64,000 nucleotides of DNA from positions 3,511 to 67,510 of the forward strand of contig JAYFMV010000019.1 of the NCBI GenBank assembly GCA_042408245.1, given 5' to 3'. The stretch comes from Potamolinea sp. (GTDB taxonomy: Bacteria > Cyanobacteriota > Cyanobacteriia > Cyanobacteriales > Coleofasciculaceae). Of this stretch, positions 3,864 through 53,100 are shown piece by piece. The notes beneath the pieces are model-generated. The model ran no database searches. It was not told the DNA's origin and saw only the letters and a program-made list of their open reading frames with translations. How positions within the stretch are numbered: position 1 is the first letter of the stretch; each line of letters starts with the position of its first letter. The position numbers and the translations under genes are program-made.

Positions 3864-3864
3864 T

Positions 3865-3968
3865 GGTTGTTGGTTGTTGGTTGTTTGTTGTTTGTTTTTA
3901 GCTACGGACTACTGACCACCAACTACTGACCACTGACCACTGACCACTGACCACTGACCACTGACCAA
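3865..3968. repeat. heptamer tandem repeats: (GGTTGTT)-like followed by (CTGACCA)x7
   Basis: Direct reading: ggttgttggttgttggttgtttgttgtttg, then ctgaccactgaccactgacc... These are STRR-type repeats. Confidence 0.9.
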
Positions 3969-6572: not shown

Positions 6573-6830
6573 CAAATGTTGTGGGTTGTTGGTTATTTGT
6601 CATTGGTTATTTGTTATTGGTCATTGGTTACAAACAACAAACAACTAACAACAAACAACTAAGCAGGTGAGTGAAAATAAACACAACATGGGCAGGGCGG
6701 GTTTTGAATATAAAATACTGGTTCGTGTCAAGCCTTATCCCTAAACCCGCCCCTACAAATTTATTTGGTTTTTTTTACGCTACCTGCTTAACAACCAACA
6801 ACAAAAAACTAACAACCAATGAGTATTACT
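6573..6830. repeat. inverted heptamer-repeat arms flanking a palindromic hairpin element (PATE/MITE-like, core 6690-6760)
   Basis: The left arm (ttggttatttgtcattggttatttg) and right arm (caaacaacaaacaactaacaa) are inverted. The core hairpin is gggcgggtttTG...ctAAacccgcccctaca. The same core recurs at 45674-45745 next to tnpB. Confidence 0.8.
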
Positions 6831-8371: not shown

Positions 8372-8537
8372 GCAAGTTAACTTTATAGCTCTGTTGTAAA
8401 TTATTTTAAGTGCGACTGGACTACCTGTACTCAGATTCAGTTTGTTATTGGTTATTGGTTGAGAGAAGAGTGTTGATTCCCTTGGAAACAACAAACAACA
8501 AACAACCAATAACTAACAATCCCAGAGTTGTAGACGA

Positions 8538-13196: not shown

Positions 13197-13751
13197 ATGA
13201 AAAATCTTAAAATTACACTTTATCCTCTAATTATTGGTGTTTTACTCTTAGGAATAGCCACTTTAGGCCTGAGATTGATTCAAGTTACGGTTTGGATCGA
13301 GCCAGAAATACCAGATATTTCCTCTATACCAGAAATTTCGCCACCCGAAGCACCAAAAATAGAAAAGCCAAAAGTATCGCCGAGCTTACCTACCCCAGAC
13401 ACAAAACCTGAGAAAAGTCCAGATCCAGCCGAGGTAGAAGCGCGTCAGGGAGCTTTACGGGTAAGTAATCCAACCGCACATCCGATCCGCGTTGCGTTAC
13501 TATCACGTCAGTCATCAGATAAAGCTTACGTAGAACCAGCGCATTGGGATTTTTCACCGCTGGAAGGTGGAACTCAAGGATTGAGGCTTTCGCTACCTCA
13601 AGGAAATCTGAAGCTGAAAAAAGGAGATATTCTCGTTGCTTTCGCTCAAGATGGCTCCCGTCAGTACTGGGGGCCGTTTGTAGTAGGTGAAACGTCAATT
13701 CCTGTCTGGAATCCAGAGAAAGCTGAATGGCTGCTAAATTTGCAACCTTGA
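13197..13751 (+). CDS. hypothetical exported/membrane-anchored protein with Pro-rich linker
   Basis: 184 aa with an N-terminal TM/signal-anchor. REP-like hairpins follow at 13800-13880. Confidence 0.5.
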   Translation: MKNLKITLYPLIIGVLLLGIATLGLRLIQVTVWIEPEIPDISSIPEISPPEAPKIEKPKVSPSLPTPDTKPEKSPDPAEVEARQGALRVSNPTAHPIRVALLSRQSSDKAYVEPAHWDFSPLEGGTQGLRLSLPQGNLKLKKGDILVAFAQDGSRQYWGPFVVGETSIPVWNPEKAEWLLNLQP

Positions 13752-14035
13752 GGCTTGTTTGCCAATCTATACCAGCAGGCTATAAGGCCCTGGGGCTATA
13801 AAAACAAAGCCTGCCTACGCAGGCTTACAGTATAGTCCGCGTAGGCGGACTTCGTTCTTGTAGCCGCGACTTTAGTCGTTAGGCGTTTTTGCAAAATTGG
13901 GATGCAACCTTGACACTGGGCTCTGAGGGCTTGATATTCAACAAGGGAACTGCGAGCTTGTATCAAAGTCATCAAAGATACGAGCAGTGGTATGGTAGCA
14001 TTTGCCGTTAAATTAAGGTCTGGGAAGATAAATTC

Positions 14036-17748: not shown

Positions 17749-18915
17749 ATGACATTTGGTAAATCAAAATCTCTGTTTTTTCTAATTCCTGGTATATCGG
17801 TTATGGATCGATATATTGCTTCTGAGTTAATACCGCCGTTTCTCTTTGGAGTTGGCGCTTTTTCTTCAGTAGGAGTGGCAATCGGCACTTTATTTGATTT
17901 GGTGCGGAAAGTAACTGAAGCAGGATTACCGATGGAGATTGCGGTTAGAGTAATGATGTTGCAGATGCCACAGTTTATTGCTTATGCTTTCCCAATGTCT
18001 ACGCTCTTAGCAGCAATGATGACCTATTCTCGCCTCAGTAGCGATAGTGAATTGATTGCTCTACGTAGCTGTGGTGTTAGTATTTACCGGATGGTTGTTC
18101 CTACTGTAATTTTGAGTTTGATGGTTACGGGTACAACTTTTGTCTTCAATGAAGTTGTTGTTCCTGCTGCTAACCGCGAGGCTGCCGTTACTCTACAAAA
18201 AGCGTTGAAGGAGGAAAAGCCATCTTTTCAGGAAAATAATATTTTCTATCCAGAATATGGGGAAGTTACGCAACCAGATGGTAAGAAAAGTAGGATGATC
18301 AAGCGTTTGTTCTACGCTGATAAGTTTGATGGCGAACGCATGAAGGGTTTGACTATTTTGGATTGGTCACAGCAAGGTTTGAGTCAAATTGTGACTTCTG
18401 AATCAGCTATTTGGAACCCGGAAGAAAGTACGTGGGATTTTTTCAAAGGTACTATATATGTTGTTTCTCCGGATGCTTCTTATCGCAATATCCTGCGCTT
18501 TGAAAATCAACAGATAAAACTTCCCAGAACGCCCCTTGATTTGGTTGGTAAGGAAAAAGATTCCGCTCAGATGAATATTTCTCAAATCAAAGAATATATG
18601 GAAGTCCTGCGAGTTAGTGGTGATACGAAAAAAATTCGTCGGCTGACTTTGCGTATTCAACAAAAAACTGCTTTTCCTTTTGTTTGTCTGGTATTTGGGC
18701 TGATAGGTGCGGTTTTGGGAATCAAACCTCAACGTACTGGTAAAGCTACCAGTTTTGGTATTAGTGTTGTGATTATTTTTACTTACTATTTATTAGGTTT
18801 CATCACTGAAGCATTGGGTTTGTCTGGAGTATTTTCTCCTTTTCTGGCTGGCTGGTTTCCCAATATGTTCGGTTTAAGTGCCGGTGGATTTCTGCTATTC
18901 AAAGCAGCACGATAG
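17749..18915 (+). CDS. LptF/LptG-family (YjgP/YjgQ) permease
   Basis: MDRYIASELIPPFLFGVGAF, probable true start 17803. Periplasmic beta-jellyroll middle region, 6 TM segments. Confidence 0.85.
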   Translation: MTFGKSKSLFFLIPGISVMDRYIASELIPPFLFGVGAFSSVGVAIGTLFDLVRKVTEAGLPMEIAVRVMMLQMPQFIAYAFPMSTLLAAMMTYSRLSSDSELIALRSCGVSIYRMVVPTVILSLMVTGTTFVFNEVVVPAANREAAVTLQKALKEEKPSFQENNIFYPEYGEVTQPDGKKSRMIKRLFYADKFDGERMKGLTILDWSQQGLSQIVTSESAIWNPEESTWDFFKGTIYVVSPDASYRNILRFENQQIKLPRTPLDLVGKEKDSAQMNISQIKEYMEVLRVSGDTKKIRRLTLRIQQKTAFPFVCLVFGLIGAVLGIKPQRTGKATSFGISVVIIFTYYLLGFITEALGLSGVFSPFLAGWFPNMFGLSAGGFLLFKAAR

Positions 18916-19160
18916 TCAGTTGTCAGTTGTCAGTTGTCAGTTGTCAGTTGTACAGCCCTACGGGCATGAAAAACGGTTGTCAGTTGTTATTTGTTGGTTG
19001 TGTAGGGGCGTAGCATTTGCTCCCAAATATTTAGGTATTACCGACCATCTAACAATCGCTTTTGCTACGCCCTTCCTGTCAGTGATCAGTGCTTCTGATT
19101 ATCAATTACCAATTACCAATTACCAATTACCAATTACCAATTACCAATTACCAATTACCT
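18915..19160. repeat. heptamer arrays (CAGTTGT)x5 and (CAATTAC)x8 plus the inverted copy of the 35-bp element seen at 17701-17735
   Basis: Direct reading. ttgtacagccctacgggcatgaaaaacggttgtcagttg (18943-18981) is the reverse complement of aaccgttttcatgcctgtagggctgtacaact (17697-17728). Confidence 0.85.
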
Positions 19161-22935: not shown

Positions 22936-23853
22936 TTGCATCCCCAACTGACTATCTGTACGTTTGTGCCTTCCGAATCCCTGACTCAGTCGTTGAGTCA
23001 GTTTTTGAGCAGCGAACGCTATATCTTGCACATCACTGTTTCAGAATCCGAGTTTTTCGAGTTTGTGGATCGACACAAGCAGCAGCTTGATTGTTTGGTT
23101 GTACAGGATGAACACTCATTATTGCCAGTACTCAACCGACTATACGAGCAAGGAACGCTGCTACCTGTTGTAATTTTTCCCCAGGAATTGGTAGAAGTCA
23201 CGTCTTGCGTTGCTAGCAATCAAGAGATCGAAACCAGTCAGACGCTGAATGAGGCCGAGGTGGCCAAATTAAATCATCTGTTCCATGCCGCTGAAGTCCG
23301 AGTCAATACTACCCAATTGCCTGAGATTAGGAGCTTTATTGAAAAAGCGATCGCTCAGTTTGTCTCTCTTTCTCCGGCCTATACCTTTCCCGATTGGTCT
23401 ACCACTGTCGAGCGCCAAACCGATCTGACCCCTAATAGTTTCCTCATCCAGCAGCAGTACCGATTATCTGAAAAACTCAAGGAAAGACTTGGATACCTGG
23501 GTGTGTATTACAAAAGAAATTCCCAGCTTTTTTTACGTAATCTAGCTCCAAAGCAAAGAGAAAAGCTTTTAGAAAAATTAAAATTCGGGTATCGTCAGAT
23601 CGTTTTAAAGTATTTTTCTCAAGAAGATTCCCTTAATCAACAAATCGATAGCTTTGTCGAGCAAGCATTTTTTGCTGATATTCCAGTCTCTAGGGTTGTG
23701 GAAATCCATATGGAACTAATGGAAGAATTCGCCAAGCAGTTGAAGCTAGAAGGGAGAAGCGAGGAGGTGTTACTAGATTATCGACTGACCCTGATCGATG
23801 TTATTGCTCACCTGGGCGAAATGTATCGACGGTCTATCCCTAGAGAGTTATAA
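22936..23853 (+). CDS. kaiA: circadian clock protein KaiA (full length, with N-terminal pseudo-receiver)
   Basis: The N-terminus is colinear with Synechococcus KaiA: LTICTFVPSESL vs IAICIWVESTAI, and KQQLDCLVV vs RDQIDCLIL. C-terminal HMELMEEFAKQLKLEG..LIDVIAHLGE. Gene order kaiA-kaiB-kaiC. Confidence 0.85.
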   Translation: MHPQLTICTFVPSESLTQSLSQFLSSERYILHITVSESEFFEFVDRHKQQLDCLVVQDEHSLLPVLNRLYEQGTLLPVVIFPQELVEVTSCVASNQEIETSQTLNEAEVAKLNHLFHAAEVRVNTTQLPEIRSFIEKAIAQFVSLSPAYTFPDWSTTVERQTDLTPNSFLIQQQYRLSEKLKERLGYLGVYYKRNSQLFLRNLAPKQREKLLEKLKFGYRQIVLKYFSQEDSLNQQIDSFVEQAFFADIPVSRVVEIHMELMEEFAKQLKLEGRSEEVLLDYRLTLIDVIAHLGEMYRRSIPREL

Positions 23854-23992
23854 TACAAACCTTTAGCTATCAGCTTTTAGCGCTAAGCTTGAAGAAAGCT
23901 CTTAAATTTACCTAGTTTTTGAGTTGATTTTCGGATGACCTTGTATTCTTAACCTGTATACTTGCTGATTGCTTATAGCAACTTACAAAATT

Positions 23993-24307
23993 ATGAGTCC
24001 GTTAAAAAAAACTTATGTTCTCAAGCTTTATGTAGCTGGAAACACTCCCCACTCTATTAACGCTTTGAAAACACTTAAAAACATCCTAGAACAAGAATTT
24101 CAAGGAGTTTACGCCCTAAAAGTGATTGATGTCCTAAAAAGCCCACAGCTAGCTGAGGAAGACAAAATCTTGGCTACACCAACTTTGTCCAAAGTCTTAC
24201 CTCCACCTGTCCGAAAAATCATTGGTGACCTTTCGGACAGGGAAAAAGTTTTGATAGGCTTAGATCTTCTTTATGAAGAACTGCGAGAAGAGGAATTAGA
24301 TTTTTAG
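23993..24307 (+). CDS. kaiB: circadian clock protein KaiB
   Basis: [49 protein letters not shown] is near-identical to KaiB. The upstream in-frame M at 23969 is unlikely to be the start. Confidence 0.95.
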
Positions 24308-24386
24308 TTAAACGTCCAAGACTATAGTAGAGTAGCCTTGAATATTCTAGTCAAACCATTGGGTCTGATTAGAGAAAAAACTTTTT

Positions 24387-25964
24387 TTGACAATAACAGA
24401 AAACATGAATCAATCTAAAAAAACTGAACAAAAGCCTGACACTTTAACATCGGTAGGAGTCCATAAAATAAGGACGATGATCGAAGGTTTCGATGATATT
24501 AGTCATGGAGGTTTACCGATTGGGCGCACCACCATCGTCAGCGGAACATCTGGCACCGGAAAAACGCTGTTAGCGATTCAGTTTCTCTATAACGGAATTG
24601 CCTATTTTGATGAGCCTGGTGTATTTGTAACTTTTGAAGAATCTCCCACAGATATCATTAAAAATGCTTACAGTTTTGGTTGGGATTTACAACAATTAGT
24701 TAATGATGGCAAGCTATTTATTTTAGATGCCTCACCAGATCCAGAAGGACAAGAAGTTGTCGGAAACTTTGACCTTTCTGCCTTAATTGAACGCATTCAA
24801 TACGCCATTCGTAAATATAAAGCCAAGCGAGTTTCTGTTGATTCAATTACTGCAATCTTTCAACAATACGATGCTGCTTCAGTAGTAAGAAGAGAGATTT
24901 TTCGCTTAGTTGCACGTCTCAAACAAATTGGCGTGACAACAGTAATGACAACAGAAAGAGTTGAGGAATATGGTCCAGTAGCCAGATTTGGAGTGGAAGA
25001 ATTTGTCTCCGATAATGTGGCAATTGTTCGTAACGTCCTAGAAGGGGAACGTCGTCGTCGTACCATAGAAATTCTCAAGCTGCGTGGTACAACCCACATG
25101 AAGGGCGAATACCCTTTTACTATGACTAACCAGGGTATTAATATCTTCCCGTTAGGAGCAATGCGCTTGACTCAGCGTTCTTCCAATGTTCGCGTATCTT
25201 CAGGTGTTGAAACTCTTGATAAAATGTGCGGTGGTGGTTTTTTCAAAGATTCAATTATTCTGGCAACTGGTGCTACTGGTACTGGCAAAACTTTGCTGGT
25301 TAGTAAGTTTATCGAAAATGCTTGCTCGCGAGGCGATCGCGCTATTCTTTTTGCCTATGAAGAATCTCGCGCTCAGTTGTCTCGTAATGCTTATTCCTGG
25401 GGTATTGATTTTGAGGAAATGGAACAAAATGGTCTACTAAAAATCCTTTGCACTTACCCAGAATCATCAGGACTAGAAGACCATTTACAAATTATTAAAT
25501 CGGAAATTGCTGAATTTAAGCCTTCTCGAATTGCGATAGATTCCCTTTCTGCTTTAGCGCGAGGAGTTAGTAATAACGCTTTCCGGCAATTTGTGATTGG
25601 CGTTACTGGTTATGCAAAACAAGAAGAAATTACGGGATTTTTCACTAATACTACTGACCAGTTTATGGGGTCTAATTCAATTACAGATTCTCATATTTCC
25701 ACGATTACTGACACAATTTTGATGCTGCAATACGTGGAAATTCGCGGAGAAATGGCTCGTGCTATCAACGTTTTCAAAATGCGTGGTTCTTGGCACGATA
25801 CAGGTATTCGTGAGTACACTATTAGTGAAGATGGGCCAGATATCAAGGATTCATTCCGCAACTACGAAAGAATTATCAGTGGTTCTCCCACTCGTATTCC
25901 TGTGGATGAAAAGAGCGAACTTTCCCGAATTGTTCGAGGTGTACGCGAAAAATTAGAGGAATAA
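24387..25964 (+). CDS. kaiC: circadian clock protein KaiC
   Basis: Duplicated RecA-like domains, Walker A GTSGTGKT and GATGTGKT, C-terminus SFRNYERIISGSPTRIPVDEKSELSRIV. Colinear with S. elongatus KaiC along its length. Confidence 0.97.
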   Translation: MTITENMNQSKKTEQKPDTLTSVGVHKIRTMIEGFDDISHGGLPIGRTTIVSGTSGTGKTLLAIQFLYNGIAYFDEPGVFVTFEESPTDIIKNAYSFGWDLQQLVNDGKLFILDASPDPEGQEVVGNFDLSALIERIQYAIRKYKAKRVSVDSITAIFQQYDAASVVRREIFRLVARLKQIGVTTVMTTERVEEYGPVARFGVEEFVSDNVAIVRNVLEGERRRRTIEILKLRGTTHMKGEYPFTMTNQGINIFPLGAMRLTQRSSNVRVSSGVETLDKMCGGGFFKDSIILATGATGTGKTLLVSKFIENACSRGDRAILFAYEESRAQLSRNAYSWGIDFEEMEQNGLLKILCTYPESSGLEDHLQIIKSEIAEFKPSRIAIDSLSALARGVSNNAFRQFVIGVTGYAKQEEITGFFTNTTDQFMGSNSITDSHISTITDTILMLQYVEIRGEMARAINVFKMRGSWHDTGIREYTISEDGPDIKDSFRNYERIISGSPTRIPVDEKSELSRIVRGVREKLEE

Positions 25965-27236: not shown

Positions 27237-28865
27237 TTAAAAAGGGCGATTATCACGCAGAATTTGCAGATTCTTACGGATGGTAACAGTATTGGGATGA
27301 TTTGTTCCTAATCTTCGTTGGGCAATCTCTAAAGCTTGCAGATACAAAGGTTCAGCTTCAGTGTAGCGTCCTTGAGATTTGTAGAGACCTGCCAAGTTGT
27401 TGAGACTGGTAGCGACAGCGGGATGGTCTTCTCCCAGAAGGCGTTTTGTCAACTCTAAAGCTTGCAGATACAAAGGTTCAGCTTCAGTGTAGCGTCCTTG
27501 AGAATTGTAGAGACCTGCCAAGTTGTTGAGACTGGTAGCGACAGCGGGATGGTCTTCTCCCAGAAGGCGTTTTGTCAACTCTAAAGCTTGCAGATACAAA
27601 GGTTCAGCTTCACTGTAGCGTCCTTGAGATTCGTAGAGTGCTGCCAAATTGTTGAGACTGGTAGCGACATTGGGATGGTCTTCTCCCAGAAGGCGTTTCC
27701 ACAACTCTAAAGCTTGCAGATACAAAGGTTCAGCTTCAGTGTAGCGTCCTTGAGATTTGTAGAGGTATGCCAAGTTGTTGAGACTGGAAGCGACATCGGG
27801 ATGGTCTTCTCCCAGAAGGCGTTTGGTCAACTCTAAAGCTTGCAGATACAAAGGTTCAGCTTCAGTGTAGCGTCCTTGAGATTTGTAGAGGTATGCCAAG
27901 TTGTTGAGACTGGAAGCGACATCGGGATGGTCTTCTCCCAGAAGGCGTTTGGTCAACTCTAAAGCTTGCAGATACAAAGGTTCAGCTTCAGTGTAGCGTC
28001 CTTGAGAATTGTAGAGACCTGCCAAGTTGTTGAGACTGGTAGCTAAATCCTCCTCTAAACCAAACTCTTTTTGTAAATCAATTGCTTTGCCAAGATACTG
28101 GATTGCTAGAATTTGTTCCTGCTGATAATCCTGCGATTCTCCCTGGTCTAATCTTTTTTTATAAATGCTTCCCATTCTGAAATAAAAATCCGCCAAACTA
28201 GGGTCTTTTTTCCCCCTTTGCTGTTCAATTTTTCTAATTAATTCCTGCAAGTCTTTTAGGGGTATCAACGAAGTGCCATCTTCATCTGTACCCAAGAATT
28301 TCTGTTCTTCTGGAGTCAAGCGTAAGTCAGTAAATTCTTTCCTTAAAACTGCACTTCTCTTTTTAGAAGCAAACCGAAAAACACCCTTGCGCCAACTCCA
28401 AAAATCCAGAGCTTTTTTACTCAAACTTGCCTGAATTTGATTCGTCATCCAGATCACAATTGGAAAAGGAAACTCTCGCATTCCTTCCCGCGTCCACTGT
28501 AAATAACCGAAAAAAAGATCTTGCTCTGAGCGTTTTTCACCAAGTTTCAAAAAGTAAAACTGCTCGATACCCGTCACCGTCAAAACCGCTTGTCCACCCT
28601 GACGCAGATACTCATCTTTTGCCACTAACTCAGCAATAGCCGCCCTCAGACTAGGTTCCCTGCGTGCTAATGTTACCCGATAGGGACGCATCTCTGGCTG
28701 CAATTCTGCCTCATATCGTTGAATTATCTGCTCACGGAAATCAAGCTGATCACATACTGCAATCAACAAGCTCAACTTTCCCTGACTTGCTTCAATTGAA
28801 ACCAGCAAATCATCATAACTATCTTCATTTTGATCTGTCGTATCTGGGAAAGATTGAGTGTCCAT
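27237..28865 (-). CDS. TPR (kinesin-light-chain type, TPR_10/12) repeat protein with uncharacterised 280-aa N-terminal domain
   Basis: Six near-identical 42-aa repeats LNNLAxLYxSQGRYTEAEPLYLQALELTKRLLGEDHP. The start ATG abuts the upstream ATPase stop (TAAATG). Confidence 0.8.
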   Translation of the reverse strand: MDTQSFPDTTDQNEDSYDDLLVSIEASQGKLSLLIAVCDQLDFREQIIQRYEAELQPEMRPYRVTLARREPSLRAAIAELVAKDEYLRQGGQAVLTVTGIEQFYFLKLGEKRSEQDLFFGYLQWTREGMREFPFPIVIWMTNQIQASLSKKALDFWSWRKGVFRFASKKRSAVLRKEFTDLRLTPEEQKFLGTDEDGTSLIPLKDLQELIRKIEQQRGKKDPSLADFYFRMGSIYKKRLDQGESQDYQQEQILAIQYLGKAIDLQKEFGLEEDLATSLNNLAGLYNSQGRYTEAEPLYLQALELTKRLLGEDHPDVASSLNNLAYLYKSQGRYTEAEPLYLQALELTKRLLGEDHPDVASSLNNLAYLYKSQGRYTEAEPLYLQALELWKRLLGEDHPNVATSLNNLAALYESQGRYSEAEPLYLQALELTKRLLGEDHPAVATSLNNLAGLYNSQGRYTEAEPLYLQALELTKRLLGEDHPAVATSLNNLAGLYKSQGRYTEAEPLYLQALEIAQRRLGTNHPNTVTIRKNLQILRDNRPF

Positions 28866-30152
28866 TTAAATGTGTCCTCTTTCTTGCAGCAGTTCAGTCA
28901 CAATCGGGTGAACATCGTACCAAAGTTTAGCATTCCTATACTCTAAAATATACAAGCCATGTAGTAAATCCAGAAACTTTTGTTCTTTCGGATCATTGGG
29001 TCGAGATTCCTTGTAAGTTGTTTCTAAAATCTGGTAATCATCTGTACCAATCCGAGTATCGAAATCAAGACTGAGTTTAGTAATAGCTTCCTTGAGAATT
29101 GCCTCATTGATTTTAATATCAGTACGTTCAGGGTAACGCCGAACTAAGCGTAGGCAAATCCGACAACATTCATTGGCAATTCTGATTAACTCCCGCAAGA
29201 CTCCACCGCTATAAATAATAATTTGCTGGGCTGTTTGTTCTTCAATCAATTCATGGGTGAGCCGTTTGTTGAGAATTTCGCAAAGCCTTGCGGTTGGTTC
29301 GGCTTTTGGGACAGCATTCGGTTGACGACGTTCTCCCATAGCAAAGAGTTTTGAGACTGGCATGGGGATAATTTGATTATTCGTCTCTGTCTCAATCAGA
29401 GACATCAGAGAAACTTCTCTTAAGGCAGCAATAGGTATGGTAAAAATAATCCTAAAGTTAGGTTGAAATAATGCCTTAATATGCTCTTGGAATACTTCTC
29501 TTACCAGTTCCAAGTCTAATTTATCTAAGTCGTCAATAATAACCACAATATCTTGATTTGTTGCTGCATAAACAACAGCAGCAATTTCATTGATGCGAGC
29601 AATTAAATCAGAGACTTTGCGGGCAAATTCTTGCTTAATTTCGTTACGAGTAGAGGCATCTGCTTTGAGCTTACCAGAAATTAGTTTGAATAAATTAAAG
29701 CCAACCGAACCTTCAGCTTTGTACTCTTCTGTTTTAATCTGAGTCCGATTAGCAAACCATTGATAAAAAGCATCTTTAGTTGTTTGTTTAATGTTGACTT
29801 GCCGTTTTTCTGCTTGCTCCATGAGGCGAACTGCAATGGCAAAAAGAATATTAATATGATTGACATCTGACATTTCAATCATGTCGGAAATTGAGAAAAT
29901 GACAACAAAATATCTGTCCCCAATTCGCCGACTCAACTCAGAAAGTAAGGTAGATTTACCACAGCCACGATGACCTGTGAAAACAATTTTTCCGTCACCT
30001 GAAGGACTATCTTCAACCAGTTGTTCTAGTTCTTCAATAACTTCAGTACCGTACTCTACTTTAAATTTTTCTAATTCTTTTTGCTCCAAAAGTGGCAGCA
30101 ATTCCAAGTTTCTGTAGGCTTCTCGAAAAGACTCTAATAATTCGTTAGGCAT
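28866..30152 (-). CDS. P-loop NTPase, STAND/AAA_16-like
   Basis: Walker A GHRGCGKSTLL, Walker B IVVIIDDLDKLD, then a helical C-terminal half. Co-transcribed with the TPR gene. Confidence 0.75.
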   Translation of the reverse strand: MPNELLESFREAYRNLELLPLLEQKELEKFKVEYGTEVIEELEQLVEDSPSGDGKIVFTGHRGCGKSTLLSELSRRIGDRYFVVIFSISDMIEMSDVNHINILFAIAVRLMEQAEKRQVNIKQTTKDAFYQWFANRTQIKTEEYKAEGSVGFNLFKLISGKLKADASTRNEIKQEFARKVSDLIARINEIAAVVYAATNQDIVVIIDDLDKLDLELVREVFQEHIKALFQPNFRIIFTIPIAALREVSLMSLIETETNNQIIPMPVSKLFAMGERRQPNAVPKAEPTARLCEILNKRLTHELIEEQTAQQIIIYSGGVLRELIRIANECCRICLRLVRRYPERTDIKINEAILKEAITKLSLDFDTRIGTDDYQILETTYKESRPNDPKEQKFLDLLHGLYILEYRNAKLWYDVHPIVTELLQERGHI

Positions 30153-30222: not shown

Positions 30223-30690
30223 GAAGTCCGACACCCTCAAGGGTGCGGCTACCTGAACAAAGTCCGCCTGCGCGGACTAAATGCCCAAGACTTGTGATAG
30301 CCTGCGTAGGCAGGCTTGGTTCCTGTAGCCCCAGGCTTAAGCCTGCGGGGCTTTTGAGCAACTAAATGCCGAACAATGGTGATCTAAGCCCGACACCCTC
30401 AAGGGTGCGGAACCACACGAACAAAGTCCGCCTGCGCGGACTAAATGCCCAAGACTTGTGATAGCCTGCGTAGGCAGGCTTGGTTCCTGTAGCCCCAGGC
30501 TTAAGCCTGCGGGGCTTTTGAGCAACTAAATGCCGAACAATGGTGATCTAAGCCCGACACCCTCAAGGGTGCGGAACCACACGAACAAAGTCCGCCTGCG
30601 CGGACTAAATGCCCAAGACTTGTGATAGCCTGCGTAGGCAGGCTTGGTTCCTGTAGCCCCAGGCTTCAGCCTGCGGGACTTTGATGAGAA
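30223..30690. repeat. three tandem copies of a ~163-bp unit rich in internal hairpins
   Basis: Units start at 30223, 30386 and 30550. Copies 2 and 3 are near-identical. Internal palindromes include caccctcaagggtg, gtccgcctgcgcggac, agcctgcgtaggcaggct and caggcttaagcctg. The last copy overlaps the final 8 codons of the MVP homolog. Confidence 0.9.
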
Positions 30691-42914: not shown

Positions 42915-43997
42915 GTGACTGCCCAAGCACCTAGAACTGCCCACCGTCTGGTTTTTCCTTTCACTGCAATTGTGGGTCAGGAAGAAATGAAACTGGCTCT
43001 GTTGCTGAATGTGATTGACCCGAAGATTGGCGGAGTGATGATTATGGGCGATCGCGGCACGGGTAAATCTACTACTATTCGGGCATTAGCTGACTTATTG
43101 CCGGAAATTGATGTTGTTGCTGATGACCTCTTCAACAGCGACCCCACCGAACCCGATTGGCTGAACGAAAATGGCAATTCACAAATAAGGACAACTGTCA
43201 AGAAAAAAGTTCCGATGGTTGACCTACCCTTGGGGGCGACAGAAGACCGAGTTTGCGGCACGATTGACATCGAAAAAGCTTTATCTGAGGGTGTGAAAGC
43301 CTTTGAACCGGGACTGCTGGCCAAAGCTAATCGCGGTATCCTCTATGTAGATGAAGTCAATTTGTTGGATGACCACCTTGTAGACGTATTGCTGGACTCT
43401 GCTGCTAGTGGCTGGAATACCGTCGAACGGGAAGGGATTTCCATTCGTCACCCTGCACGTTTTGTGTTAGTAGGTTCCGGTAACCCTGAAGAAGGTGAAC
43501 TACGTCCGCAATTGCTAGATAGATTTGGGATGCATGCGGAAATTCGCACTGTCAAAGAACCAACTTTGCGCGTGCAGATTGTGGAAGAAAGGGCAGAATT
43601 TGACCAAAATCCCCAAGAATACCTGCAAAGTCACCAATCAGAGCAAGAAGTCTTGCAAAAACAGATTGTAGCGGCTCAAGAGTTACTTCCTCAAGTTGAG
43701 ATGGACTACGATTCGCGGGTGAAAATTTCCCAAATCTGTTCAGAACTAGATGTGGATGGTTTGCGGGGTGATATTGTGACCAACCGTGCTGCAAAGGCAA
43801 TTGCTGCTTTTGAAGGACGTAACGAAGTCACCATTGACGATATCCGTCGTGTCATTACCCTCTGTCTGCGTCACCGCTTGCGGAAAGACCCCCTAGAGTC
43901 GATTGATTCTGGCTACAAGGTACAAAAGGTCTTCAGCCGCATTTTTGGGTTAGAGGCGTCTGAGAATGCAGCAGTTACAGCTAACGGTGCTCGCTGA
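42915..43997 (+). CDS. chlI: magnesium chelatase ATPase subunit I
   Basis: [41 protein letters not shown], canonical ChlI/BchI. Confidence 0.95.
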
Positions 43998-44189
43998 ACA
44001 AATTCCCGCAGCGTCGAGTCCCTGGGGCTACGGAAACAAAGCCTGCGCAGGCAGGCTTAAAATTTTGTTGGTATTTAGTTCGCTGACAACCAGGAAAGTC
44101 ATAGGTTGCAGCTTACTAGATGCGTTTGCTTGCCACTATACGAGTAACTCAATAACTCAATAAATAACCAGTCGTAGTTACTAATTGAA

Positions 44190-51026: not shown

Positions 51027-52949
51027 TCACATCGATTCCCGATATTTTTCCAAGAGTTGCGGGATGTAATCATAGCCATCAACACCAATGATGGGAATGA
51101 TTTTCGCTCGCTGTTGTCCCAACAATTTTTGAAAAGTTTCGACTCCCATTTGTCCCTGCAAAATTGTTAGTAATCCCGCTGGTTTACGCCAATCATTAGA
51201 ACCAATTTGCTCTAAAAGATACGCACCTAAACTACCTGTATAAATCGTTTGTTCCAGATACGCCAAACTATAGCAAGCTTGAGCTAAGTATGATAAATTA
51301 ATGCCTTGAAGGTACAAATCTCCTGAAAATTGGGCAGATTCCCAACCTTTTTCTAAGTAAGTAATTGCTTGCTGTGGCTGTTCAATTACAACATGAGCAA
51401 TTCCCAGACTGCTGAAACACATTGCTTTGCTTTGGCTATCCCCCAAACGCTCAGACAATTGCAAACCTTGTTCCAGGTAGTGAATCGCACTCTCATACAC
51501 CTCTGGTTCTACATTTACCTGTTGCTTGGCTTGAAACACTTCACTGTAGCCGAAATTTGCCAGAGCATTTGCTTCTCCTAACCTGTCTCCATTTTGACGT
51601 GAAAAAATTAACGCCCTTTGACTGTAATTAATTGCCTCAGTATAATTTTTTTGAGCAACACAAATTCGGCTCAAATGATTAAGATTGGCAATCTCACAAG
51701 CTCTATCTTCCGCATCGCGAGCAATTTCCAAAGCTTGCTGATGGAAGGAAAGTCCTCTGTCATATTGACCTTGAGCGCCTAAAGAATAACCCAATAAAGT
51801 GAGAATTCGTGCTTTTTCCTGAGTTCCTTCAACTCGTCGCAAAGGTTCATCCAGGTAGTTCAGCGCATCTCGCAGATAATTCCTACCCAGAAATGCAAAA
51901 ACACCGCCGTAGAGAGGGAAGTATTCCCGTTGGGAGAAAGTGCGGAGAATTTGTAGAGTTATCTGAAAGCAGCCATTGACAATTGGATCACGTTGTGATC
52001 CGTTTAGGTTTTGGTTGAAGGCGCTTGCTAACTGCGACCAAATTACTGCAAAAACAATGAAAGTAGAAATTGAAAGCTTTGCCCCTACTTTGGAGTCATA
52101 AACCATTTTGTCAAACCAAGCTACCAGTCCCCGTTGTAAGTATTGGAGAATGACTGTAAGCTCAACCCAAGCACTCAGTTCCAGACTTGGCTGCTTGTTG
52201 GCCCATTCGTTGAGGGATTGATTCCGCGCTAGAGTTTGAAATAGTGACTGCGGTAGGGGACTATTCACCTGTTTTGCCCACAAAGCCCAAGGGCCGCGCT
52301 GTTCCGGGACTCCTTCAAATCCTAATGAGCCTTGGCTTTGGTCGTAAATCCAGCTTACTAGATAATTTTCCAATCGCTGCCAAGATGCTAAACCGGCGCT
52401 GAGTCCTTGGGACAGTTGTAGAATTTCTTTGGCACTTTCGGGGTTAGATGTTTCTAATGCTTTTTGCTGGAGTGTTTTTGCTAGTTGAGCTAGTTGCTGT
52501 AAGTTCAGCGTCTGCTGCTGATTGGGGTCGATCGCTCGCAGTAAGTAGCTGAGGCGATCAGGCGATTCGGCGGCAATAATTGCTTGAGTGGCGGCTGTAA
52601 TAGCTGTAGAGACGCGGTTTTGCTCCTGTACCCTGGAGTATTCGCTACTGATGGTTTTGAGGGCTCTGAGAGTTCTGGTAGCTTTTGCTTGCTTGATTTC
52701 GCTAATAGGATTATCTACTTCCTGCTGGGTTGTGCTAAGACGTTCCTCCAAGCAACGCTCAAAGATTTCACCTGTTCCTGTGCTGACTCCTTGAACCAGC
52801 ATTTGATATACCTGCTCTTTGGAGCGGATCTTGCCTTTCAGGGTTGCTTCCACGATTTCGTCGATTAGCTGGAAGTAGCGATCGCCTAATGGCATACTTT
52901 CCGACATAACTGCAAAGCCCCAAAAGAAACTGCCTTTGTCATTGGTCAT
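51027..52949 (-). CDS. TPR-repeat protein with uncharacterised N-terminal domain
   Basis: 640 aa. The C-terminal half has TPR-like helices. Heptamer arrays flank it at both ends. Confidence 0.55.
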   Translation of the reverse strand: MTNDKGSFFWGFAVMSESMPLGDRYFQLIDEIVEATLKGKIRSKEQVYQMLVQGVSTGTGEIFERCLEERLSTTQQEVDNPISEIKQAKATRTLRALKTISSEYSRVQEQNRVSTAITAATQAIIAAESPDRLSYLLRAIDPNQQQTLNLQQLAQLAKTLQQKALETSNPESAKEILQLSQGLSAGLASWQRLENYLVSWIYDQSQGSLGFEGVPEQRGPWALWAKQVNSPLPQSLFQTLARNQSLNEWANKQPSLELSAWVELTVILQYLQRGLVAWFDKMVYDSKVGAKLSISTFIVFAVIWSQLASAFNQNLNGSQRDPIVNGCFQITLQILRTFSQREYFPLYGGVFAFLGRNYLRDALNYLDEPLRRVEGTQEKARILTLLGYSLGAQGQYDRGLSFHQQALEIARDAEDRACEIANLNHLSRICVAQKNYTEAINYSQRALIFSRQNGDRLGEANALANFGYSEVFQAKQQVNVEPEVYESAIHYLEQGLQLSERLGDSQSKAMCFSSLGIAHVVIEQPQQAITYLEKGWESAQFSGDLYLQGINLSYLAQACYSLAYLEQTIYTGSLGAYLLEQIGSNDWRKPAGLLTILQGQMGVETFQKLLGQQRAKIIPIIGVDGYDYIPQLLEKYRESM

Positions 52950-53100
52950 TGGTCATTGGTCATTGGTCATTGGTCATTGGTCATTTGTCCTTTGTCCTTT
53001 GTCCTTTGTCCTTTGTCATTGGTCATTTGTCCTTTGTTGTTTTTTTAACTACTGACCACTGACTACTGACCACTGACTACTGAGTAGGTAAACGAATAGT
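52930..53100. repeat. heptamer arrays (CATTGGT)x7, (CCTTTGT)x4 and inverted (CTGACCA/CTGACTA)x5
   Basis: Direct reading. The arrays overlap the start and stop codons of the two flanking genes. Confidence 0.9.

Follow-up and report, generated by a model that had tools for sequence, protein, structure and literature searches.

The 64,000-nt stretch of Potamolinea sp. DNA analyzed here (contig JAYFMV010000019.1, positions 3,511 to 67,510; hereafter the window) contains a tandem array of hairpin-rich units between the gene for a homolog of the major vault protein (MVP) and the gene for a P-loop NTPase (hereafter the ATPase). The genes surrounding the array all lie on the minus strand. An earlier, sequence-only reading of the window had proposed that the array would be transcribed with its neighbors and could serve as a structured RNA, an attenuator or terminator stack, or a processing site. 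This locus raises the question of whether the array is a regulatory part of the two genes or a repeat that arrived between them by its own means. Our analysis indicates that the array is very likely a local cluster of a non-coding, selfish palindromic repeat that is common in filamentous cyanobacteria and belongs with the repetitive extragenic palindromes (REPs), their inverted doublets (REPINs) or the miniature inverted-repeat transposable elements (MITEs).

Tandem Repeats Finder reported one array at 30224-30682, with a period of 164, 2.8 copies, 97% matches and a score of 862, and the G+C content of the unit is 56%, compared with 43.5% across the window. The three tandem units of about 163 bp described in the sequence-only reading were recovered as this period and as three complete elements. 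Its claim of near-identical, recently duplicated units also held, as an exact-repeat search found 30255-30418 and 30419-30582 to be 100% identical over all 164 nt, and the whole unit appears to have been duplicated very recently. In the register of that reading, a BLAST search with the middle unit gave 96.3% identity between units 2 and 1 over 164 nt and 98.5% between units 2 and 3 over 133 nt, with homology stopping at 30682. The array is best described as three complete four-hairpin elements of ~127 nt, each ordered d-c-b-a, plus two 37-nt spacers, the 164-nt unit being one element and a fragment of another. All are on the minus strand. Element E1, the gene-proximal copy, was delimited at 30554-30682 from the relatives' alignment, pattern matches and folds (d1 30653-30680, c1 30627-30644, b1 30589-30606, a1 30554-30574). 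Element E2 occupies 30390-30516 (d2 30489-30516, c2 30463-30480, b2 30425-30442, a2 30390-30410), and the gene-distal element E3 occupies 30228-30352 (d3 30325-30352, c3 30299-30316, b3 30261-30278, a3 30228-30248), 75 nt upstream of the ATPase start codon. The spacer between E1 and E2 (30517-30553) is a diverged copy of the c-b spacer and the start of b: unit positions 140-162 match positions 55-77 at 82.6% by BLAST, and 21 of 23 positions, counted by eye, are identical to the c-b spacer of a relative (L175). The spacer between E2 and E3 (30353-30389) is identical to it. The ORF listing also contains a 62-aa open reading frame (ORF) with a TTG start that lies wholly within the array (30337-30525, minus strand) and is most likely a by-product of the repeat.

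The sequence-only reading had credited each unit with four or more perfect palindromes. Four hairpins with stem-loops of 18-28 nt are indeed present, two of them interrupted by loops and the other two imperfect. Hairpins b (AGTCCGC-CTGC-GCGGACT) and c (AGCCTGC-GTAG-GCAGGCT) each have a perfect 7-bp stem and a 4-nt loop, and hairpins a (CCGACACCCTCAAGGGTGCGG) and d (GTAGCCCCAGGCTTAAGCCTGCGGGGCT) contain a wobble or mismatch and bulges. The generic pattern AGYCYGCNNNNGCRGRCT has nine matches in the window against 0.06 expected. Relative to shuffled sequences, the array has folding z scores of -7.6 (minus strand) and -7.1 (plus strand), with predicted energies of -241 and -222 kcal/mol, respectively; the z scores of single elements are -3.5 to -3.9. 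Read in the MVP sense, d ends in CTAC, AACCAAG precedes c, CTTTGTT follows b and GT[AG]G precedes a; hairpins b and c have no terminal tag. The outer hairpins are therefore inverted, mutually facing stem-loops tagged with GT[AG]G. On the d side the tag is GTAG on the plus strand in all three units (30653-30656 in d1), and on the a side, on the minus strand, it is the canonical GTAG in E3 (plus-strand CTAC at 30249-30252) and GTGG in E1 and E2. Within the array, c and b have diverged from each other and can pair only partially.

Since the source is a metagenome-assembled genome and identical 164-nt units are hard to resolve, the tandem copy number could be an assembly artefact, the true locus holding one or two elements. 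The Logan short-read assembly of SRR27558508, whose proteins are identical to those of the window, does break inside the array, one contig (L061) ending in c1 and another (L062) beginning before b3. Each of these contigs carries a distinct variant of the window, namely the gene-proximal d1 with CTGAAGCC in L061 and the E3-type b-a junction TTGTTCAGGTAGCC in L062. The breakage implies additional repeated sequence between the two, and a break from unique into repeated sequence is what a real array would be expected to produce. The two unit variants thus support a real repeat, although they do not support its exact copy number, and we regard an artefact as distinctly unlikely. The identity of the element is independent of copy number.

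Two further copies are present in the window, which brings the number of family loci to three in 64 kb. A full d-c-b-a copy on the plus strand (13772-13909) begins ~20 nt after the stop codon of the ORF at 13197-13751. It retains only a remnant of a right terminal inverted repeat (TTTTGCAAAATTGGGATGCAACC), and its c and b are mutually complementary, the copy folding as one long hairpin of the REPIN type. The other copy, also on the plus strand (44005-44085), is truncated: its d is degenerate and its c intact (44040-44057), and after the c-b spacer only part of b remains. A chlI-like gene (42915-43997) ends directly before this copy, and an SLH-domain gene on the other side converges on it. Both had been noticed earlier, as variants near 13810 and 44040, and the REP-like family to which they were assigned was confirmed as dispersed, extragenic and tagged with GT[AG]G.

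In public metagenome contigs, the d-c pattern CCTGGGGCTAN{5,14}AGCCTGCNNNNGCAGGCT was found in 107 stretches, with 115 instances in these 107 loci; the single whole-genome shotgun projects JAESGY01 and JAESFM01 contributed ~20 stretches each. The canonical element reads GCCCTCAGGCTAnAAGCCTGGGGCTAyAC-GAACAAAG-CCTGCCTTCGCAGGCT-spacer-AGCCTGCGAAGGCAGGCTTTGTTyGTrTAG-(CGATACCCTTCTAGGGTATTGC or CCGCACCCTTCAGGGTGTCGG). Many of the metagenome copies are framed by the terminal inverted repeats GGGAGCATCCCAATTT...AAATTGGGATGCTCCC, and others lie in a different frame, GGGCGTGTTTTCAAA.... Of the nearest pairs of GGAGCATCCCAATTT-type terminal repeats, 13 of 16 are spaced by 157-165 nt and all by 130-204 nt, except one at 6.5 kb; no autonomous insertion sequence bounded by GGAGCATCCCAATTT termini was found in the family loci. 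A distant BLAST search of the unit against plasmids returned a single match, 77% identical, on a plasmid of Gloeothece verrucosa PCC 7822. This copy has inverted termini (CAGGGCTATTTCATTC...) and a 9-bp direct repeat (CTTTGAACC) on both sides, a combination that in sequence terms is the signature of a MITE. The frames that surround the four-hairpin core are thus of at least three unrelated kinds (GGGAGCATCCCAATTT, GGGCGTGTTTTCAAA and CAGGGCTATTTCATTC). The d-c half is itself reiterated in tandem in three other contigs (L162, 161-356, 68 nt x 2.9; L163, 5260-5419, 79 nt x 2; L172, 1357-1535, 93 nt x 1.9), which makes tandem amplification of element parts a recurrent event in the family. In L084 and L171 the repeated piece is ~33 nt long and includes part of b. 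Additionally, six independent elements (L070, L097, L145, L156, L157 and L165) carry a ~23-nt module, GCGCCGAGCGCACGCTTCGCGAA, between the GCCCT and CAGGCT of d, and a sequence related to this module adjoins a HIP1 site in L163 (3790-3811). A full-text literature search with strings of the element sequence returned nothing relevant, only chance matches to a 10-mer.

The inner hairpins resemble a CRISPR repeat, and the array could in principle be a degenerate or miniature CRISPR-like array with the 24-nt module of AACAAAG, hairpin and CTA as its direct repeat. The Rfam family CRISPR-DR28 (RF01356, consensus GGCAAaGCCCGCCUGCGCGGGCuA) matches hairpin b at 32.9 bits, with E-values of 5e-4 in a 701-nt scan and 8e-5 in a 111-nt scan, and its match to hairpin c, on the opposite strand, scores 25.9 bits. 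The match sites are 30256-30279, 30420-30443 and 30584-30607 on the plus strand and 30298-30321 and its repeats on the minus strand. Of the 24 consensus positions, 21 agree with the module, including the same 7-bp stem and the CUGC loop. However, neither score reaches the gathering score of 35, the modules are found on both strands, and the sequences between the supposed repeats are identical across units, where a CRISPR array would hold unique spacers; by that measure membership in a CRISPR array was rejected. The module is also dispersed singly across genomes, no DR28 match at the gathering score was found in 16 further family-bearing loci, and a scan of 17 ORFs, out of the 63 of at least 100 aa in the window, showed no cas gene. 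A permissive Rfam scan of the array returned only sub-threshold matches to CRISPR-DR28, DR57 and miRNA families. A CRISPR origin of the array is thus highly improbable; in the reverse direction, RF01356 itself may derive from, or share ancestry with, REP-like repeats.

The positions of the family copies describe a repeat of intergenic space. Of the 79 copies that were placed, only 3 fall within ORFs of at least 120 aa, which cover 68% of the DNA (p = 5e-34). Flanking gene pairs are convergent at 29 copies and divergent at 13 (p = 0.02), and co-directional at 34. In the co-directional contexts the element runs in the direction of the genes in 19 cases and opposite to it in 15, which is no orientation bias. 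The family is extragenic and biased to the 3' ends of genes, and it is not oriented with transcription. All three loci of the window are co-oriented with the upstream gene, and co-orientation was considered as a family property and rejected on the same counts, 19 versus 15.

Covariance had been suggested as a check on the hairpins, and across 50 elements aligned with RNAalifold the stems are kept by compensatory changes. The consensus structure has 29 pairs, nine of them with such changes. Hairpin b occurs with five stem variants (AGCCTGC, AGTCCGC, AGCCCAC, AGACCGC and AGGCCGC), all perfectly paired, and three of its pairs show 11, 13 and 3 double changes with none broken. In hairpin a, 31 elements have U-A and 19 have C-G at one pair, and throughout the family GTGTAG or GTATAG stands ahead of a. 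When family members are aligned, c and b, together with their flanks, are reverse complements of each other, c having the loop CTTC or CTAC and b the loop GAAG or GTAG. In the consensus this complementarity is exact and extends through the loops, so the inner pair can form one long hairpin.

The array touches the MVP homolog directly. The MVP gene ends with a TGA at 30666-30668 (minus strand) that falls within the loop of E1's hairpin d, as the sequence-only reading had noticed, and the 5' arm and loop of d1 encode the residues QSPAG and the stop. That reading went further and held that the last unit had rewritten the final eight codons of the protein. The element does supply QSPAG and the stop, but clear element homology covers only ~5 codons and the stop, the overlapping element is the first in the direction of transcription, and the overlap is ancestral. 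The last point follows from relatives with MVP at 95% identity, of which four lineages were examined (L063/L064, both JGI metagenome contigs; L065; L066; and L175). In L063 and L064 a single element follows the MVP gene, composed of d, c with a 27-nt loop insertion and a degenerate b, with an antitoxin/ParE pair next. In L175, one d-c-b with a truncated a gives way to unrelated sequence, and L065 and L066 show one element before their contigs end, the content differing again. The 27-nt insertion, ATCGCGCTTGTGCTGTGCGTAGCGCAC, is placed exactly in the loop of c (L063, 3455-3481; L064, 2766-2792; L065, 2825-2851) and is not present in the window, L066 or L175. The MVP stop is inside hairpin d in all close relatives. 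The C-terminus reads QSPAG* in the window and in L065 and L066, QSPTG* in L175 and QSRTD* in L063, whereas MVP homologs at 84% identity or below have unrelated tails after GLI(S/N)P. Because the stop overlap is shared with relatives that carry a single copy, it predates the tandem duplication, and because each close relative has one variable copy, the triplication is specific to this strain. By these comparisons the element-derived C-terminus is real and ancestral to the clade, not a product of tandem expansion. The element thus provides the stop and last residues of a conserved protein, and this arrangement has persisted across strains with 95%-identical MVP.

Beyond the MVP gene the locus is not stable. 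In L063 the body of the ATPase gene and the extra elements are missing and ~70 nt of the ATPase 3' end are kept, with positions 28938-28778 of the window matching L063 3523-3683 at 94%; homology then resumes at the DUF433 gene and kaiCBA. The 94% match comprises the first ~29 codons of a 542-aa TPR gene that abuts the ATPase gene and the last ~24 codons of the ATPase. In L063 the counterpart of this junction is the start of a 76-aa putative antitoxin gene and the sequence upstream of it, with the ParE toxin gene next. From this correspondence, the TPR gene looks chimeric and the region rearranged. In 60 MVP loci from other genomes neither the ATPase nor the NB-ARC neighbor on the other side was found beside MVP, and a conserved MVP-array-ATPase operon was rejected on this count (0 of 60). 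Weak partial similarity to the unit was found in only 5 of these 60 loci and in none at the MVP 3' end. The array lies at a hot spot of structural variation and not in a conserved operon.

These results bear on the proposal of a selected cis-acting RNA, in which the array, as MVP 3' UTR or ATPase leader, would act as a terminator or attenuator, protect against 3' exonucleases or give rise to a small RNA. Twelve stable hairpins would be co-transcribed with MVP, with the folding scores given above for the whole array and for single elements, and the transcribed strand folds better through G.U pairs. The family is enriched at gene 3' ends, and the MVP stop codon is within a hairpin loop. In E. 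coli, REPs this near a stop codon lower translation. Hairpin b with UUUGUUCGUGU was flagged twice as terminator-like, but two sites compare with 1.6 expected in shuffled sequences, and the flagged sites (b with TTGTTCGTGT, minus strand) have a weak U-tract, UUUGUU. No promoter-like site was found in a scan between the array and the ATPase gene, and Rfam 15 gave no match at the gathering score to the array or anywhere in the window. The same element occurs in unrelated intergenic regions in either orientation, independently of neighboring gene direction (19 versus 15), which speaks against an RNA dedicated to an MVP-ATPase operon. Moreover, none of the 60 other loci has the ATPase next to MVP, and L063 lacks the body of the ATPase gene. 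The sequence-only reading had named absence or variability of the array in related strains, with no consequence, as grounds against such a role, and copy number and content at the MVP locus differ in all four lineages examined. A dedicated RNA function is supported by no test run here and is, in our judgment, unlikely. Recognizing the family guards against reading the cluster as a regulatory RNA, or as a feature of an operon at the cyanobacterial vault-protein locus.

The reading of the array as a cluster of REP-type repeats agrees with what has been described for other bacteria. Earlier work describes REPs tagged with GTAG, dimers of such REPs, and clusters in which REPs and flanking DNA are tandemly reiterated, cyanobacteria included (Di Nocera et al. 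2013, PMC3733652), and the GTAG-12, -15 and -16 families of that study are from Anabaena, Nostoc and Cyanothece/Gloeothece. Like members of this super-family, our elements consist of short stem-loops, GC-rich and with an unpaired GT[AG]G at one end, that occur in many dispersed copies with an extragenic, 3'-end bias and form inverted pairs; G.T pairs in the stems and dimers within longer palindromes are further points of agreement. The 77%-identical composite is from one of the surveyed strains, Gloeothece (formerly Cyanothece) PCC 7822. In contrast to the GTAG REPs, the tagged pair here (d and a) encloses a second inverted pair (c and b) in a fixed four-hairpin module. REPINs have been described in Nostoc, and REP doublets are the mobile unit (Bertels and Rainey 2011, PMC3116915); cyanobacterial TnpA-REP subclasses 2.4, 2.7 and 2.8, that is, REP-associated tyrosine transposases (RAYTs), are flanked by long REPs with a 5' GT[AG]G (Quentin et al. 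2018, PMC6006769). Our family shares with REPINs the arrangement of two inverted REPs, a short distance apart and able to fold into one long hairpin, as well as the GT[AG]G tag and tens of copies per assembly. It differs in that terminal inverted repeats and a flanking duplication of 9 bp are present in some members, which points to MITE-type and not RAYT-type transposition for these members. The family, which breaks short-read assemblies from filamentous cyanobacteria, is thereby given a clean anatomy: d-c-b-a with inward GTAG tags and optional terminal inverted repeats.

The likeness to bacterial MITEs covers length (~160 nt), lack of coding capacity, terminal inverted repeats, a flanking direct repeat, stable structure and intergenic location; Nezha, a cyanobacterial MITE named in PMC3733652, was compared by description only. 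The terminal repeats are those of the Gloeothece copy and many metagenome copies. The array copies have none, several unrelated frames surround one core, and no autonomous MITE partner was found in the family loci. A third resemblance is to the small dispersed repeats SDR1-8 of Nostoc punctiforme, which, as far as the citing papers describe them (PMC4390886, PMC3116915), are likewise very small hairpin modules with nested insertions in a filamentous cyanobacterium. Comparable nesting here is seen in the 27-nt insert in the c loop (L063-L065) and the ~23-nt insert in d of six elements.

Several observations weigh against the assignment to this class of selfish repeats, or narrow it. A motif scan of the window plus 1.67 Mb of family and MVP loci, with the pattern [ND]HxH ... 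Y[IV]x(1-2)[NQ][PQ], showed no RAYT-like ORF with HUH and Y motifs, a result that is uninformative for a single-copy gene. The array copies are without terminal inverted repeats or a target duplication. The likeness to GTAG-12, -15 and -16 is one of description and not of consensus sequences, and the relation to the SDR repeats is a lead from the papers that cite them, not a sequence comparison, so that any identity with a named family would be tentative. Hairpin a has G.U wobbles in 12 of 50 elements, and the d-to-a strand folds better than its complement. This strand bias fits strand-specific recognition of single-stranded DNA, and it also fits selection at the RNA level. Given the random orientation with respect to host genes, we would read it as selection on single-stranded DNA or element propagation, not on host mRNAs. 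Finally, the compensatory changes could reflect templated copying of palindromes instead of selection.

The route by which a repeat of this kind reached its present form at the MVP gene is in part shown by the sequence comparisons and in part proposed. The comparisons show that a single ancestral element at the MVP 3' end gave the protein its last five codons and stop, and that only in this strain has the element, with its 37-nt flank, been reiterated to three copies. Most likely, repeat modules recombined unequally, or slipped during replication, to give the tandem expansion. The family may have spread as hairpins of single-stranded DNA, which a RAYT-type HUH tyrosine transposase would recognize by GT[AG]G and cut; for the copies with terminal inverted repeats, a transposase recognizing those repeats would be the MITE-like alternative. 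Effects on MVP and ATPase transcripts, by analogy with enterobacterial REPs, would be by-products and not the reason for the array. Candidate by-products are a barrier to 3' exonucleases, weak termination at b with UUUGUU, and ribosome stalling at the hairpin-buried stop.

A more far-reaching and doubtful idea is that the four-hairpin core moves autonomously, being captured by unrelated frames, nesting mini-elements of 23-27 nt, amplifying in tandem and donating stop codons, and that its inner 24-nt module is related to CRISPR-DR28. If this were true, either an Rfam 'CRISPR' family would really be a REP family or a REPIN-like element would have seeded a CRISPR repeat.

Turning to the neighboring genes, the full-length MVP homolog (889 aa, 30666-33335, minus strand) has Vault repeats and a shoulder domain, and its 3' end is provided by E1. 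The protein is identical to one annotated from a metagenome-assembled genome of Potamolinea sp., and in databases such homologs are often named 'colicin uptake protein'. In the comparison with loci L001-L060, homologs are 65-83% identical across many filamentous cyanobacteria and are also present in Thiomargarita, Parabeggiatoa, Chloroflexi, Anaerolineae and one metagenome-assembled genome labelled Actinomycetota; the distribution is patchy and the gene neighborhood is not conserved. Downstream of the array on the minus strand are the ATPase gene (AAA_16/KAP, 428 aa, 28866-30152) and the TPR gene (27237-28865), and an NB-ARC/TPR protein is encoded at 33801-35801 on the same strand. A PADLOC search of the flanking genes gave only weak P-loop and TPR matches. 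A 139-aa ORF with a GIY-YIG nuclease domain (36481-36900) adjoins the NB-ARC/TPR gene, and a kaiA-kaiB-kaiC clock cluster (22936-25964), syntenic with L063 at 95%, lies a few kb from the array.

The two genes flanking MVP contain tandem arrays of a 126-bp unit, at 27318-28043 (5.8 copies) and 33891-34504 (4.9 copies), both of which encode 42-residue TPR_10/TPR_12 repeats. The TPR repeats of one gene are ~85-90% identical to those of the other, and both sets match those of the TPR gene upstream of MVP in L063 at the same level; this similarity suggests repeat exchange between TPR genes. The window also holds 38 HIP1 (GCGATCGC) sites and many intergenic tandem repeats of heptamers such as GACCACT, ATTACCA and TTTGTCA, similar to short tandemly repeated repetitive (STRR) sequences, at sites including 3864-3967, 6584-6659, 8486-8519, 18915-19159 and 52935-53083. 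HIP1 sites and heptamer repeats are typical of filamentous cyanobacteria, and the window is cyanobacterial.

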